This document shows, piece by piece, positions 7,778 to 54,165 of a stretch of DNA of 64,000 nt (position 1 is the first letter of the stretch; each line of letters begins with the position of its first letter). The DNA is from Candidatus Spongiisociaceae bacterium (GTDB lineage: Bacteria; Actinomycetota; Acidimicrobiia; Spongiisociales; Spongiisociaceae). The notes under the pieces are model-generated. The model made no database searches. It was not told the origin of the DNA and saw only the letters and a list, made by a program, of their open reading frames with translations. Where the stretch lies: assembly GCA_965262915.1 (NCBI GenBank), contig OZ253564.1:2464001-2528000 (forward strand). The letters run 5' to 3'. A program made the translations under genes and the position numbers.

Positions 7778-7883
7778 CCAGGAGGGTGGTCAAAATCGCC
7801 TCCACTGCCCGTCGGCCGATGACATAATCCCTGGTCAGCGGGCGACGGGCACCAGCACCCGATCATTTGCACCACCCTCCTAA
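7778..7883. mobile_element. MITE family A (IS1182-like ends)
   Basis: CCAG-GAGGGTGGT ... ACCACCCTC-CTAA inverted ends, ~100 bp, no ORF. Confidence 0.75.
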
Positions 7884-7990
7884 TGTCCCGAATCTCAAGT
7901 TCGTTGTGGTGAATACAGCTTCATCGGACTGCCGCGGCCCCGACCGGACCCCGGTCCTCCCTCTCCAGGTAACCGGCTGCCACACAAGGG

Positions 7991-8019
7991 TTGATCCTGT
8001 CACACCCACGTTGTATAAT
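7991..8019 (+). promoter_or_regulatory. Promoter of RNA cassette copy 1
   Basis: TTGATC-17 bp-TATAAT with TGTCAC 10 nt before the -10 box. Same geometry in all six copies. Confidence 0.75.
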
Positions 8020-8024
8020 GTTTG

Positions 8025-8196
8025 ATAGCCGTATACACCACCGGTTCGCTTCCGACGTCAAGCGGACCGGGGCAGGGATCACAATGCTTCGCGCCGACCC
8101 TCCCCGGGGATGGGGGGAGCGCGCTCGGGGACCGATGGAGGTGGCGGCGGGGGCGGGCCCACGGGAGTGGTCCGTTCGGGCGTTTTTCGCGTTCTC
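8025..8196 (+). ncRNA. Unassigned structured RNA motif, copy 1
   Basis: CACC..., hairpin CCGGTTCGCTT/AAGCGGACCGG with GACGTC loop, GGGATCA, GGAGGTGGCGG, GCGTTTTTCGCG. Confidence 0.65.
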
Positions 8197-8286
8197 GTTG
8201 TTGGGGATCGGGTGGGTGGGTTGCTCAGCCTTGCTTCCGGGTATCTGTAGCGATTTCCTGATTCAGGACACCGGACAACTATAGCG

Positions 8287-12211: not shown

Positions 12212-12413
12212 TTGATCCTGTCACACCGATGTCGCACAATGGTAAATAGCCGTAAACACCACCGGTCCGTTGCTGGTACCGATCGGACCGGGGCAGGGAT
12301 CAATCTGTCCGAGCACACCCTCACAGGGGAGGAGAGTTCGCGCTCGGAGCCTCGGAGGTGGCGGTTGGGGAAGGCCCGCGGCAGGGCTACGGCGGGGCGT
12401 TTTTCGCGTTCTC
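12212..12413 (+). ncRNA. RNA cassette copy 2 (promoter plus structured RNA)
   Basis: TTGATC 12212, TGTCAC 12219, CACAAT 12235. AAACACC, CCGGTCCG/CGGACCGG hairpin with GGTACC (12275), GGGATCA, GGAGGTGGCGG, GCGTTTTTCGCG. Confidence 0.65.
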
Positions 12414-25638: not shown

Positions 25639-25658
25639 GCCCTTCAGCACCCTCCCAG

Positions 25659-25950
25659 TGTCCTGATTCCGGGATCAGTCATGGATACTCGGGACGTGCC
25701 GGCGTTGGCACCGGGCAGGCCTTGGGGGACCGAGAACGCGAAAAACGTGGGACCGGATCCCTCCGACGGGCCCACCCCCGACCGCCACCTCCTCGGTTCC
25801 CGAACGCGTCCCGCCATCCCCTGCGAGGGGTCGGCTCCGACAACATGATCCCTGCCCCGGTCCGGTCGGTACCGCAAGACGGACCGGTGGTGTTTACGGC
25901 TACTTACCATTATGCAACGGGACTGTGACACGTCAATCCTCTTGTGGCGG
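25659..25950 (-). ncRNA. RNA cassette copy 3 with retained IS630-type 3' end
   Basis: TTGACG 25936-31, TGTCAC, CATAAT 25914-09. GGTACC loop at 25868, TTTTTCGCG. TGTCCTGATTC at 25659 is identical to the IS630 TIR. Confidence 0.65.
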
Positions 25951-32769: not shown

Positions 32770-32974
32770 GGTCGCGAAAAACGCGACCGCCGGCTTGTCC
32801 TCCGGGCCCTCCCCCGCCACCACCGTTCCTGAGTTCCGAGCGCGTTCTGCCCGCACCTGGGGGGCTGTCCGGCACCTAGATTCGTGATCCCTCGGGCGGT
32901 CGAAATGACGTCCGGTTCGAGACCGCCGGGTGTTTGACACCAACCAATATGCCACAGGGTTGTGACAGGTTCAA
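32770..32974 (-). ncRNA. RNA cassette copy 4
   Basis: TTGAAC 32974-69, TGTCAC, CATATT. AAACACC, GACGTC loop (32907), GGGATCA, GGTGGTGGCG, GGTCGCG-TTTTT-CGCGACC. Confidence 0.6.
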
Positions 32975-33038
32975 CCCTCTCGAGCGGGCAAGTTCCTCCC
33001 CGGATGGGCTTCCGGCCACCCGAGAGCCGTGTGGCGGG

Positions 33039-34088
33039 TCAGTCGCCCAGGGAGTCGACGATGTGCATGATCCCGTCTCTGGCCATGGGGTTGGGCAGGT
33101 AGCTGCTGAAACCGGGGTAGAGCGGGAAGATGATCGGCAGGGTGATGCCGGCCGCCCGGTACACGTCGATCTTCTCCCGGCACATCTCCGGCGTTCCGTA
33201 GACGGTCACCGCGTCGGCCATCTCGTCGTCGATCAGGTCCACGGCGGCCTCCATGTCCCCCGCCTCGACCCGTTCGGTCACTTGGCGGGCGATCTCTCCC
33301 TTGCCGCGGCGGTTGAAGTAGGTGCGGTAGTAGTGGTACGAGGACATGTGGATGGCCACGTCGTGCTTGGCCGCCAGCTTGGCGGCCTCCACGTCCTCGC
33401 TGACCGAGGTCGGCAGGTAGCACCCGAGCTCGATCTCGGCCGGATCCCGACCTACCCGGGCCGCTCCCCTGGCCACAGCCTCCTTCATGACCGGCACGAA
33501 GTCGAGCGGCACGAAGATCGGCGCCACCCCGTCGGCGATCTCGCCGGCCAACTCGAAGGTCTTCTCGGCCAGCGCACCGTAGAAGATCTCGATGTTGTCG
33601 CGGTACGGTCCCAGCCACGGCTCGTAGTCGCGGACGTGGAAGACCTCACCCCGGTAGCGGACCGGCTCGCCCTGGTAGGCGCCCTTGATGACGGCGCGGG
33701 TCAACTCGGTGGTCTCGCGCAGCCTCTGCAGCGGCCGCTCGAAGGGGGAAGGCCGGTTGATCTCCACGTCGTCGCGCATCAGGTGGATCTCGCGATGGCC
33801 GACCCCCAGGCCCAGGCGGAACCGGCCCTCGGAGATGGAGTCGACGGTGGCGGCGGCGATGGCGATGGTGGTCGGGTTGCGGGTGAACACCGTCGCCACG
33901 CCGGTGCCCAGGATTATCTGCTCGGTCTCGCGGGCGCATGCGGCCAGGAAACAGAACGGGTCCGAGAAGCTCTCGATTATGTAGGCGGACTCGTAGCCGC
34001 GCCGGTCGGCCAGCTTGACCACGTCGATGAGATCGTTGATCGGCATGCCTCCCCAGAGGCCGAGCCCGAGCCTGTCCATGTGAAACAC
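33039..34088 (-). CDS. LLM-class flavin/F420-dependent oxidoreductase
   Basis: LGTGV...RNP..IA..AATVD.ISEGRFRLGLG, ELAGEIADG. Confidence 0.92.
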   Translation of the reverse strand: MFHMDRLGLGLWGGMPINDLIDVVKLADRRGYESAYIIESFSDPFCFLAACARETEQIILGTGVATVFTRNPTTIAIAAATVDSISEGRFRLGLGVGHREIHLMRDDVEINRPSPFERPLQRLRETTELTRAVIKGAYQGEPVRYRGEVFHVRDYEPWLGPYRDNIEIFYGALAEKTFELAGEIADGVAPIFVPLDFVPVMKEAVARGAARVGRDPAEIELGCYLPTSVSEDVEAAKLAAKHDVAIHMSSYHYYRTYFNRRGKGEIARQVTERVEAGDMEAAVDLIDDEMADAVTVYGTPEMCREKIDVYRAAGITLPIIFPLYPGFSSYLPNPMARDGIMHIVDSLGD

Positions 34089-34177
34089 CCGCCTTTCTGT
34101 CGTCGCTGTCGTCGTCCCTCAGACCATGCGCTGGTGGGCGAGCATCGAGCTCGCGAGAAATACGCTACGCAAAGGGG

Positions 34178-34385
34178 TTGACCTTGTCACACCCGTGCCG
34201 CACAATAGGTGATACCAAACACCGGTGCGGCATCGAACCGGACGTCCTTCGGCCGCCCGCGGGATCATCAAGCTCGGAACCAGGTCGGCATCACCGAAGG
34301 CAGCGGCAGGACGCGTTCCGACCCCAGGAAAGGTGGTGGTGGGGGTGGGCCCGCCGGAGGGTCGGCGGGGGCGATTTTCGCGACC
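34178..34385 (+). ncRNA. RNA cassette copy 5
   Basis: TTGACC 34178, TGTCAC 34185, CACAAT 34201. AAACACC, GACGTC loop (34241), GGGATCA, GGTGGTGGTG, GCGATTTTCGCGACC. Confidence 0.6.
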
Positions 34386-51802: not shown

Positions 51803-53568
51803 GAGGGTGCTGAGCAATCCGTCTGAAGGGGTGCTGCTTGAACCCTGGGATGTGCTGTTGGCTGGTGTGGGTTGGTGGGAGGCTGCCGGTTGGGGGGTGG
51901 TGGTGCTGGTTGTCGGGGTGGAGTTGCCCCGGTTTTTGGGGTTGCCGGTGGGTTTGGTGGTTTAGGTGGGGTTGAGTGCCCAGCCGGTGGTTGTGTGGGT
52001 GAGTCCGAGGTTGATGAGGCGTTGTAGGTTGATGGCTGCTGTTGGGGTGGTGAGCCATTGCTGGTTGGGTTTGATTCCTCGGTGTGGGACACGTCTGGGG
52101 TTGCGGCGGGTGAGCCAGGCGATGGTCCGCTCGACGGACGGCCGGTGGTTCCGGTAGGTGTCCTGCGTTTCTTCTTTGGCCCACCGTGCTTTGTTCGCGG
52201 CGCGACGGTCGTGGTGTTTGTCGACTGCGATGGTCCGTCCACGCTTGGAGGTGGTGCATCGTGCCCGCAGGGGGCAGCCGTTGCACCGCTTGGCGAACGG
52301 GGCGGTACCACCGGGGCGTATGCGGGTGGTGTGCCCGGCGGGACACGTCACCGTCCGGGCTCCGGTGTCGACCTCGAAGTCGTCGCGGTGATAGCCGTCT
52401 TCGATGTGGGGTTTGCGTACGATTGGTTTGGTCACCGGGGTGTGACCAAGATCGTCGAACGTTTCAAGCGCCGCACCGGACGCGTACGCGGAGTCGGCGA
52501 CGATTTCGGCACCCGGGGGTGCTTCGGCAACGAGATCCGCAATGCTGTCGGCGTCTGGGGTGTTGGCAGCGGTTAGGTGGGCGGCGGTGACCAGCCCGGT
52601 TTCGGGTTCGGTAGTCACATGGGCCTTGTACCCGTCCCGTTTGCGGGTCCGGGTCTTGTGACCGTGCCTGGCTTCGGGGTCCACCGTCGATATGGTCCGA
52701 TCTCGGGCCACACGCCGCGCTATCCGCCATCGGCCTTCCCGGTGGGGATCCGGTTCCACATCTTGGCCCGTAACCACTCCCAACAGACCTATTGCGTCGG
52801 CCTGTTCGGGGTTCAGCTTTATGTCCTCCACCCCTTCGATCAGCGCCAGCCCGTCGGTGACCAAACCGTTGATCAGTTCCGATCGGCTGTCGGGATCGGA
52901 CCAGTCACAGGACGGTTTCGCCTTCGATTCGTAGTCATGGGCCACCAGCACCAGGTCGGCTGCCTGCGGGATCAGACGTCGGCAACGCCTTATCTGCGAC
53001 GAGATCATCGTCACCGTGTCCCCGGTAGCAACCGCGTCGTGCAGAATGGTCGAGTCCAACGCACGGCGTCCCCTGTTCGCCAACACCCCACAGGCGGCGA
53101 CCACCTCCCGCACCGCGTCGAAGATACGCTCAGGACGGTCACTCGCCCTAAGCCTCGCTCGCCACAACGTCAGCACCGTCGGGTGGAACCCCCCATCGGT
53201 CAACGACAGACCAGCCGCCGCTTTCCAAGCTATGTCACGACGCAGCCGCTGGACCGCTTCCCGATCCGACAGGCCCTCCAACGCCTGGAGGACCATCACC
53301 GCCCCAATCACCGAGCCCGGTATCGACGGGCGGCCCCGCGGGCCGAACAAATCCCCAAACATCTCAGCGGGAAACAGACGCCGGCGGTGCTCAGCCAAAA
53401 ACTGATACACCGAACCCTCCGGAACCAACTCCCCACACAGTTCCATAGCGTCCAGAAACTCACGATCACCACGTTCACTACCCTGCATACCACCTACAAT
53501 AATCCCAACAAACCCAAAACGCGAACAAGCCAACACCCAACAGACCGACTAAATCAGCAGTCCCCTAG
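51799..53568 (-). mobile_element. IS1182-family insertion sequence
   Basis: CTAG-GAGGGTGCTGA ... TCAGCAGTCCC-CTAG imperfect inverted ends with CTAG duplicated. Inserted at the sulfatase stop codon. Confidence 0.8.
51962..53488 (-). CDS. IS1182-family transposase
   Basis: GRPSIP, LSDREA, LDST, STVDPEARHGHK, GYKAH, ADSAY, CPAG, C.GCPLR..C, RPSVER. Confidence 0.9.
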   Translation of the reverse strand: MQGSERGDREFLDAMELCGELVPEGSVYQFLAEHRRRLFPAEMFGDLFGPRGRPSIPGSVIGAVMVLQALEGLSDREAVQRLRRDIAWKAAAGLSLTDGGFHPTVLTLWRARLRASDRPERIFDAVREVVAACGVLANRGRRALDSTILHDAVATGDTVTMISSQIRRCRRLIPQAADLVLVAHDYESKAKPSCDWSDPDSRSELINGLVTDGLALIEGVEDIKLNPEQADAIGLLGVVTGQDVEPDPHREGRWRIARRVARDRTISTVDPEARHGHKTRTRKRDGYKAHVTTEPETGLVTAAHLTAANTPDADSIADLVAEAPPGAEIVADSAYASGAALETFDDLGHTPVTKPIVRKPHIEDGYHRDDFEVDTGARTVTCPAGHTTRIRPGGTAPFAKRCNGCPLRARCTTSKRGRTIAVDKHHDRRAANKARWAKEETQDTYRNHRPSVERTIAWLTRRNPRRVPHRGIKPNQQWLTTPTAAINLQRLINLGLTHTTTGWALNPT

Positions 53569-53671
53569 GAGGGTGGTCTAAAACGGTGGGGAGCAACGGC
53601 CCGTCTTCCTTTGGACAGGCATAATGTCATCGGTCGACGGGCCGTGAAGGGGTTTTACACCACCCTCCTAG
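53565..53671. mobile_element. MITE family A
   Basis: CTAG-GAGGGTGGT...ACCACCCTC-CTAG. Confidence 0.8.
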
Positions 53672-54054
53672 TCTCCCGACTCGGGAAGCCGTTCCGGATA
53701 CTCGGACTGAACCGTCCTTCCCATGCCGGCAGGACCGAGGGGATCGAGAACGCGAAAAACGCCGGACCGGACCCTGCCGGCGGGCCCTCCCCCAACCGCC
53801 ACCTCCTCGGCTCCGGCCGCGTTCCTCCCTCCCCGAGAGGCTCGGCTTCGACAACAGGATCCCTGGCCCGGTCCGGTCGGTACCGCAACGGACCGGCGGT
53901 GTTTACGGCTACTTACCAGTATGCAACGGGATTGTGATACGGTCAACCCCCTTGTGGCAGCGCGGTCGGTCCGGCGGGGGTTCTTCGGGCGATTCGGCGT
54001 GCCCGCCGTGCGCCGACGCGGGTCCTGGGTACAGCGAACCACAGATTCGGGACA
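53672..54054 (-). mobile_element. IS630-derived element carrying RNA cassette copy 6 (complete, 383 bp)
   Basis: Ends TCTCCCGACTC (53672) and GATTCGGGACA (54044-54054). Colinear with 7884-8270. Confidence 0.75.
53745..53946 (-). ncRNA. RNA cassette copy 6
   Basis: TTGACC 53946-41, TATCAC, CATACT. AAACACC, GGTACC loop (53879), GGGATC, GGAGGTGGCGG, GCGTTTTTCGCG. Confidence 0.65.
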
Positions 54055-54165
54055 CCGGGAGCGTGCTCGGGAACGGATGGGTGATGGGCCCGACGATCGA
54101 TGACAGGATGGCGGCTCAGCGGACGGCGGGCCAACCGTTATCACCGTTCTTCAGTACCCTCCTAG
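54055..54165. mobile_element. MITE family A, diverged
   Basis: CCGG-GAGCGTGCTCGGGAACGG ... CCGTTCTTCAGTACCCTC-CTAG. Confidence 0.6.

Follow-up and report, generated by a model that had tools for sequence, protein, structure and literature searches.

A multicopy RNA gene family of Acidimicrobiia with a self-complementary hairpin loop, a candidate kissing-loop dimer

Introduction

In the antisense systems of ColE1 (RNAI/RNAII), R1 (CopA/CopT) and IS10 (RNA-OUT), pairing between two RNAs starts loop to loop, and the loop sequence sets the incompatibility classes. The partner in these systems is a complementary RNA from the opposite strand. RNAs can also pair with their own kind, and functional homodimers of this sort are described as rare in nature (PMC7357161). 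The examples treated in that account, the HIV-1 DIS and the oskar 3'UTR, dimerise through a GC-rich palindrome of 6 nt located in an apical loop; compensatory changes keep the dimer, and conversion to an extended duplex is possible (PMC7357161).

Bacterial RNA self-assembly has become a live topic after recent cryo-EM work (PMC12286853, PMC12990946). The non-coding RNAs OLE, ROOL, GOLLD, ARRPOF and HYER1 (with palindromic pairing in D3) are reported in these sources to self-associate by kissing loops or palindromes (PMC12990946, PMC12286853), and the homo-oligomeric RNAs covered in one of them are 255-833 nt long (PMC12990946). Small RNA genes have been linked to mobile DNA as well: in Coxiella, MITEs overlapping sRNA genes have been described (PMC5896051).

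Here we analysed a 64-kb stretch of Candidatus Spongiisociaceae DNA (the window), in which a hairpin with a palindromic apical loop recurs six times. An earlier note, made from the letters of the window, had proposed that the corresponding RNA dimerises or multimerises through this loop.

Results

Six copies of one hairpin within the window

The two hexamers singled out in the earlier note lie where it had placed them. A search of the window sequence found GACGTC at 8054, 32907 and 34241 and GGTACC at 12275, 25868 and 53879, and a base-by-base check of the coordinates showed that each of the six lies in the apical loop of a homologous first hairpin. The hairpin coordinates were verified individually for all six copies. 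An oriented alignment placed copies 1, 2 and 5 on the (+) strand and copies 3, 4 and 6 on the (-) strand, and all six loci align as one repeated unit of ~240 bp. GACGTC and GGTACC differ at positions 2-5 and both are palindromic, which confirms that four positions have changed with palindromy kept. Neither word is rare in the window, where GACGTC occurs 21 times and GGTACC 20 times in total; the palindrome signal is the position of the hexamers in the hairpin, not their number.

Copy 1 (8025-8191, +) belongs to subfamily A3 and was matched by cmsearch at 78.1 bits (E 4.7e-19) and by nhmmer. Its hairpin P2 (8041-8070, +) has an 11-bp stem with one G.U pair and an 8-nt loop, CCGACGUC, in which the hexamer occupies 8054-8059. 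A promoter-like site, TTGATC-17-TATAAT, lies at 7991-8019 (+), with 10 of 12 matches in a consensus scan and 0.0 expected in shuffles. The copy is enclosed in an IS630-type MITE of ~393 bp (7881-8273, +), delimited by its bounding inverted repeats (TIR matches) and by a flank alignment of sister copies.

Matches to the covariance model define copy 2 (subfamily A; 12246-12408, +), with P2 at 12262-12291 (+) and GGTACC at 12275-12280, and copy 3 (subfamily A1; 25737-25903, -), with P2 at 25857-25887 (-) and GGTACC at 25868-25873. Copy 3 is MITE-borne; a single TIR is present at 25656-25669, and the other end of this MITE was not found. Copy 4 (subfamily B; 32773-32941, -; cmsearch 161.4 bits) has no MITE, its P2 lying at 32895-32927 (-) and its GACGTC at 32907-32912. 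Copy 5, also of subfamily B (34211-34382, +; covariance-model match), carries P2 at 34227-34256 (+), GACGTC at 34241-34246 within GGACGUCC, and a promoter-like site at 34178-34206 (+; consensus scan, ~0 expected in shuffles). Copy 6 (subfamily A2; 53751-53912, -) has P2 at 53868-53896 (-) and GGTACC at 53879-53884, inside a MITE at 53669-54057.

The hairpin is one helix of a predicted small RNA gene

The hairpin forms helix P2 of a structured RNA gene of ~165 nt. The unit consists of a -35/-10 promoter-like block, a predicted transcribed part of ~165 nt, a G+C-rich hairpin, a U-run and CGCG. The window's genome (5.06 Mb, 64.4% G+C) contains 53 copies by profile search (nhmmer) and 54 by covariance model, among them 25 of subfamily A, 23 of subfamily B and 4 outliers.

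The structure was derived from subfamily B alone; with all 52 copies in a plain MAFFT alignment, RNAalifold returned just 8 pairs. For subfamily B, RNAalifold predicts a three-way junction, in which P1 pairs the 5' end (ACCA..CACC) with the GGUGG-rich 3' segment GGUG.G.UGGU and P3-P5 form a long arm. In this arm GGGAUCA and ACGCG are conserved and unpaired, and a conserved G-tract, GGGGGNGG, stands before the terminator-like end. Subfamily A has GCCG..CACC and GGUG.G.CGGY as its P1 strands, a double compensatory change relative to subfamily B. Covariance model R1 was built from this subfamily B-derived structure. Among 95 matches in other genomes, the fraction of paired cells is 82.9%; sliding the partners by 1-3 columns lowers it to 30-48%. 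Of the 38 pairs, 35 show changes on both sides; this alignment was fitted to R1 and leans towards the model, and the margin is nonetheless large. The stem pairs of P2 (helices 3 and 4 of the model) covary among homologs.

The -35/-10 blocks are conserved in all aligned copies. The terminator was read mainly by inspection, from a conserved U-run behind a G+C hairpin; in a simple terminator scan, copy 1 had a single weak match and copy 5 had none. Judged from these comparative features, the unit is most plausibly a small RNA gene with its own promoter-like site, a terminator-like end and a fold backed by covariation, and we infer that it is transcribed. Among the sequencing runs on record, no RNA run contained the locus, and the contigs of two runs presumed to be RNA covered only short parts of adjoining coding genes.

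Searches against Rfam (release 15) gave no match in the whole window at the gathering threshold, and the best score in a permissive search around copy 1 was 17.7 bits, against a family threshold of 61. Literature searches, with supplements outside their scope, found no published description of this RNA. The RNA is a new RNA family, with no match to any described family in the sources searched.

Several further features of the unit were noted. Between the -35 and -10 of nearly all copies lies a conserved block, CTGTCACA (7999-8012 in copy 1), inside which TGTCACA is a 7-nt palindrome; this block may serve as an operator or belong to an extended promoter. Every copy also has a conserved G-rich stretch, GGUGGYGG(N1-3)GGGGNGGGCCC, at RNA positions ~120-145 (for example, window 8143-8165), and the G-runs of the tail GGUGGYGG..GGGGGNGGG are sufficient for a candidate two-tier quadruplex. 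In subfamily A only, the stretch opens with a perfect Shine-Dalgarno-like AGGAGGUG (SD-like GGAGGUG). Many 1-2-nt indels between the copies speak against a coding reading of the unit.

The RNA gene is multicopy in one family of Acidimicrobiia

Sixteen of the 24 other genomes of the window's family carry 5-64 matches each (model R1, E <= 1e-5), which by genus amounts to 7 of 7, 7 of 8 and 2 of 3 genomes. When weaker E-values of 1e-6 to 1e-3 were admitted, a genome of a different genus (G015) yielded 57 matches of ~158 nt whose loops carry GCCGGC, GGCGCC or CGCCGGCG, and these weak matches point to a divergent, equally multicopy subfamily.

Outside the family, model R1 had no match in 16 genomes representing 11 further families of the same order, nor in 150 class-wide genomes, the latter searched with strict filters under which the window's own genome gave just 18 matches. 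A loop-blind pattern scan with one genome per species found 121 loci, and the 32 of these that match the profile at E <= 1e-6 lie in records titled as Acidimicrobiia MAGs, as Candidatus Spongiisocius or Spongiisociaceae, or as 'bacterium' only. Among the genomes searched, the RNA is restricted to one Acidimicrobiia family.

Subfamily A is carried by an IS630-type MITE, and subfamily B units come and go

Eighteen of the 25 subfamily A copies, falling into three main sub-lineages, share flanks far beyond the RNA gene. The whole repeat is ~390 bp long and ends in inverted repeats adjoining CTAG; the RNA gene fills its interior, it has no transposase gene, and the MITE-borne copies are near-identical. 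The same end motif pairs up into twelve 1170-bp and four ~390-bp elements in this genome, and CTAG stands at both ends of nearly all copies of the elements that share these ends. Duplication of TA within a CTAG target is the rule in the IS630 family. One autonomous 1170-bp insertion sequence with the same TIRs lies in the window at 1029-2202 (-; TIR matches), and its transposase ORF (1028-2122, -) has DDE_3 and helix-turn-helix domains, which assigns the element to the IS630 family. Since the ends of the subfamily A MITE are those of this element, subfamily A is the cargo of an IS630-type MITE.

Other mobile DNA was seen nearby. A repeat ending in ...CCACCCTCCTAG abuts several MITE copies (window 7860-7880; upstream or downstream in other copies), which suggests that a further element family also has CTAG as its target and nests with the MITE. 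The region around copy 6 is rich in mobile DNA, and a second transposase gene adjoins this copy (51962-53536, -); its DDE_Tnp_1 domain with DUF772 is a combination that we take to be typical of the IS5/IS1182 families.

Outside the gene, subfamily B copies have nothing in common but the terminator end and an A-tract that lies ~20 nt before the -35 block. This A-tract block, TCGCGAAAAC, and the terminator end, GTTTTCGCGA, are reverse complements, which gives the unit short inverted ends; these are candidates for a UP element, an opposite-sense terminator or a mobility signal. At the site syntenic to copy 4 in two congeners, ~470 nt of intergenic DNA including the copy are replaced by ~50 nt. 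Copy 5 is present in one congener, and two others have 2.7-2.9 kb instead. Subfamily B units are gained and lost between congeners, and neither a target-site duplication nor a clean boundary could be defined from the empty sites. Between copies 4 and 5 (window 32773-34382) lies a gene for a luciferase-like monooxygenase (33039-34088, -), from which both copies are directed outwards, much as in a composite transposon; in congeners this gene is accompanied by one or neither copy.

The P2 loop is self-complementary in most homologs

The loop had been called always palindromic in the earlier note. This is true of all six window copies and too strong for the genome. There, 44 of 51 full-length copies have a Watson-Crick palindrome (>= 6 nt) with its centre at the P2 apex (26 GACGUC, 16 GGUACC, 1 CUCGAG and 1 CGAUCG). 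Of the remaining seven, five keep self-complementarity through wobble pairs (GGCGUC, GAUGUC), and two (GGCGAC, GGCGGC) are broken.

A tabulation of loops across homologs, in which mostly non-palindromic loops would have refuted the earlier note by its own criterion, supported the palindrome well beyond this genome. The pooled set comprised 134 full-length sequences: 51 copies of this genome, 29 of a complete congener, 31 loci found by pattern and 23 from three further genomes. Rows shorter than 140 nt were dropped, and the palindrome centre had to lie within 4 nt of the P2 midpoint. In this set 104 of 134 apices carry a Watson-Crick palindrome of at least 6 nt and 49 one of at least 8 nt, whereas the same statistic gives 17 of 134 in the P3-P5 arm and 22 of 134 in the 3' tail, our control regions. 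When the apex was defined by the fold (minimum loop 6), the palindrome of at least 6 nt appeared in 84 of 132, against 21 predicted by shuffling the loop letters; MFE-based loop calling misplaces some apices and undercounts. Two broader measures were of little use: the longest palindrome anywhere in a region is a poor statistic because the control regions hold the conserved GGGCCC and ACGCGU, and with G.U allowed in a wide window the result, 129 of 134 observed against 82 expected, is uninformative.

The words are diverse. At least eleven palindromic cores occur (GACGUC, GGUACC, GGCGCC, GCCGGC, CGGCCG, CGAUCG, GUCGAC, GCGCGC, ACGCGU, AUCGAU and CUCGAG), in loop words 6-10 nt long; eleven distinct cores need at least ten coordinated switches. 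Apex words in other genomes also include GGCGCGCC, GACGCGUC, CCGAUCGG and UCGAUCGA, with GACGUC and GGUACC appearing as (C)GACGUC(G) and (C)GGUACC(G). The homolog sets from four genomes (G004, G015, G017 and G018) were chosen by a model with a GACGUC loop consensus, which favours that class.

Among the 97 sequences in which the hexamer aligns without indels, 74 are Watson-Crick self-complementary, 18 are so only through wobble pairs (GGCGUC 15 times, GAUGUC twice, GGUGCC once) and five are broken, each of the latter keeping two of its three pairs; the other 37 of the 134 lie in insert columns outside this count and are mostly of the GGUACC and CCGAUCGG types, next to some rows that have no palindrome or align poorly. 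Single transitions from GACGUC are seen only where a wobble pair preserves pairing (GGCGUC and GAUGUC), and those that would break a pair (AACGUC, GACAUC and GACGCC) are absent from the 97 aligned hexamers. If positions 1-6, 2-5 and 3-4 are treated as pairs, 98.4% of 185 external cells and 97.3% of 111 own-genome cells pair. At 'pair' 2-5 the external set has AU 38, GU 11, GC 6, CG 4, UA 1, UG 1 and no unpaired combination.

Samples collected blind to the loop behave in the same way. A palindrome is present in 23 of the 31 pattern-found loci. A metagenome sample gave 17 loci, two of them apparent chance matches; by reading of their loops, the other 15 were classed as 11 Watson-Crick, 3 wobble and 1 neither. 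Many palindromes, joined by G.U-tolerant intermediates, are what selection for trans loop-loop pairing predicts.

Common descent accounts for part of these counts. Loop classes largely follow subfamilies, so many palindromes are inherited rather than independent, and in this genome, where one subfamily was spread by a MITE, part of the loop pattern reflects common descent. On a tree built without P2 (n=134), the loop class changes at least 42 times, against 67-71 in the shuffled labelings listed (5 of 200); this is a rough FastTree of short sequences, and tree error inflates the count of changes. Subfamily B copies are ~76% identical to each other yet retain the palindromic word.

Dimerisation and its alternatives

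We are highly confident that self-complementarity of the P2 loop is kept by selection at the RNA level, in a structured RNA. The inner pairs of the hexamer are impossible within one loop and the wobble variants are not DNA palindromes, which together argue for selection on RNA-RNA pairing in trans. Kissing-loop homodimerisation is in our view the best reading of the palindrome, one we consider somewhat likelier to be right than wrong. Against it, 30 of the 134 sequences have no central Watson-Crick palindrome, and the five broken hexamers of the 97 aligned are not self-complementary.

A different partner in trans is an unlikely explanation. Here the loop would pair with other RNAs, such as mRNAs or antisense transcripts holding the same palindrome, rather than with a second copy. 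A palindrome does pair equally well with any RNA that has the same word, the genome contains GACGTC 1293 times and GGTACC 1902 times, and many antisense RNAs, including ColE1 RNAI and IS10 RNA-OUT, start pairing at their loops. However, a 6-nt word gives no target specificity, and a fixed target would conserve one sequence, not palindromicity. The complementarity of the RNA to the IS630-type element and its transposase mRNA was no better than in shuffled controls, and no extended match to this mRNA exceeded them.

We consider it improbable that the palindrome is the mere top of the hairpin, extending P2 within one molecule (for example by a G-C pair that closes an ACGU or GUAC tetraloop), with no role in trans. 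In MFE folds, short stems often do appear at the apex (G[ACGU]C or CG[GUAC]CG), and position 1-6 is nearly always G-C. Yet pairs 2-5 and 3-4 would leave a loop of 2 or 0 nt, and they stay complementary through changes on both sides. As only the outer pair of the hexamer can form in cis, the conserved complementarity of 2-5 and 3-4 is not explained by the hairpin itself. A tetraloop needs no palindrome, whereas the central tetramers ACGU, GUAC, GCGC, CCGG, GGCC, GAUC, UCGA and CGCG are all palindromic, and the two other hairpin apices of the same RNAs have such words in 3 of 134 and 4 of 134 cases.

The symmetry might instead be read on the DNA by a dimeric protein, for which P2 could be an operator at +30, the core and crossover spacer of a recombinase, or a restriction-modification site. 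We give this idea little credence. Arms of 8-11 bp around a spacer of 6-10 bp resemble recombinase core sites, and lox and dif are built of inverted arms around a spacer; moreover, units are gained and lost between congeners, and all cores are classical 6-8-bp palindromes. The 18 of 97 aligned hexamers that are self-complementary through G.U only are, however, not palindromes as DNA, and the arms of P2 covary freely, G.U pairs included, with no single protein-recognition sequence kept. These two observations argue against a protein site at the DNA level. At least eleven cores would also require as many protein specificities, and no protein gene recurs near the 53 copies beyond spurious ORFs over the repeat and common families.

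That the palindromes were merely inherited, without selection, from a few founder copies amplified by transposition is very improbable: subfamily A copies are indeed MITE-borne and near-identical, with classes that follow subfamilies, but at least eleven cores in diverged copies need repeated coordinated double substitutions, class changes on the tree and in the shuffled labelings are as given above, and the diverged subfamily B copies have retained the word.

In the kissing-loop model, an RNA of ~165 nt would be transcribed from its own sigma-70-like promoter and end at a G+C-rich hairpin and U-run. The P2 loops of two such molecules would then kiss, giving a homodimer that might later convert to an extended duplex, and different palindromes would define classes that pair only with their own kind. 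We infer both the formation of the dimer and whatever it does from the sequence pattern. Nearest-neighbour energies, which ignore loop geometry, are -8 to -15 kcal/mol for same-class loop duplexes and -1.7 to -4.6 for GACGUC with GGUACC. They favour pairing within a class, as the earlier note had expected for its two non-cross-pairing classes, while the number two does not hold for the family, which has far more. Counting against the model, the 5' flank of the loop is pyrimidine-rich (CC, UUGC or CCG), without the purines that stabilise the kissing complex of the HIV-1 DIS, and a 3' flank of 0-1 nt (in many B copies an A) places the hexamer against the 3' strand of the stem.

As to function, we suggest only tentatively, and with doubt, that these RNA genes recognise their own kind via a switchable palindromic kissing loop, either as a copy-number or self-nonself sensor or with the dimer as an assembly unit of an RNA or RNP. 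As a second-order process in RNA concentration, dimerisation would let the loop serve a selfish RNA gene as such a sensor. If so, new palindromes would found 'incompatibility classes' that escape the sensor, an RNA-only analogue of plasmid incompatibility within a chromosome. If the alternative is true, a new RNA or RNP assembly, peculiar to this Acidimicrobiia family, would be built from the dimers.

Discussion

Comparative data alone suggest selection for the self-pairing of one loop in a compact, well-covarying RNA. Evolution has already supplied natural palindrome swaps and wobble intermediates, so that a few transcripts would suffice to test the dimer hypothesis directly. The copy number of 15-64 per genome of 2.3-5 Mb (5-64 matches at E <= 1e-5), the restriction to one family and the partial spread by an IS630-type MITE are unusual, and they raise the question of whether the RNA is a host tool or a selfish gene.

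Like subfamily A, IS630-family MITEs share their ends with a full-length element: the RNA gene sits in an element of ~390 bp whose TIRs are those of the 1170-bp IS630 element, with CTAG at both ends. Unlike MITE-associated sRNAs, the RNA gene also exists without a MITE, as subfamily B shows, and occurs in genomes throughout the family; this makes it cargo or a passenger rather than something that the MITE generates. The antisense loops of ColE1, R1 and IS10 differ from the P2 loop, which is complementary to itself.

Among bacterial RNAs that self-associate, OLE, ROOL, GOLLD, ARRPOF and HYER1 have, to our knowledge, not been reported as dispersed multicopy genes. In contrast to them, the present RNA is ~165 nt long and matches no Rfam family. 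With a single obvious site for self-pairing, it is expected to form dimers and not cages.

The closest likeness is to the HIV-1 DIS and oskar, with which P2 shares a self-complementary word of ~6 nt in an apical loop, an analogy rather than homology and one known here from sequence. As in the HIV-1 DIS, self-complementarity is kept through compensatory changes among natural variants. Unlike the DIS, P2 has no conserved unpaired flanking purines that would stack on the loop-loop helix, its flanks being pyrimidine-rich. Unlike both systems, this RNA is bacterial, chromosomal and multicopy and has no link to genome packaging or localisation; its words span 6-10 nt, and many palindromes occur in one family, with two main ones in one genome. 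The predicted dimer would place a known dimerisation device in a new setting, in which many orthogonal palindromes serve one multicopy, partly transposon-borne family of bacterial RNA genes.
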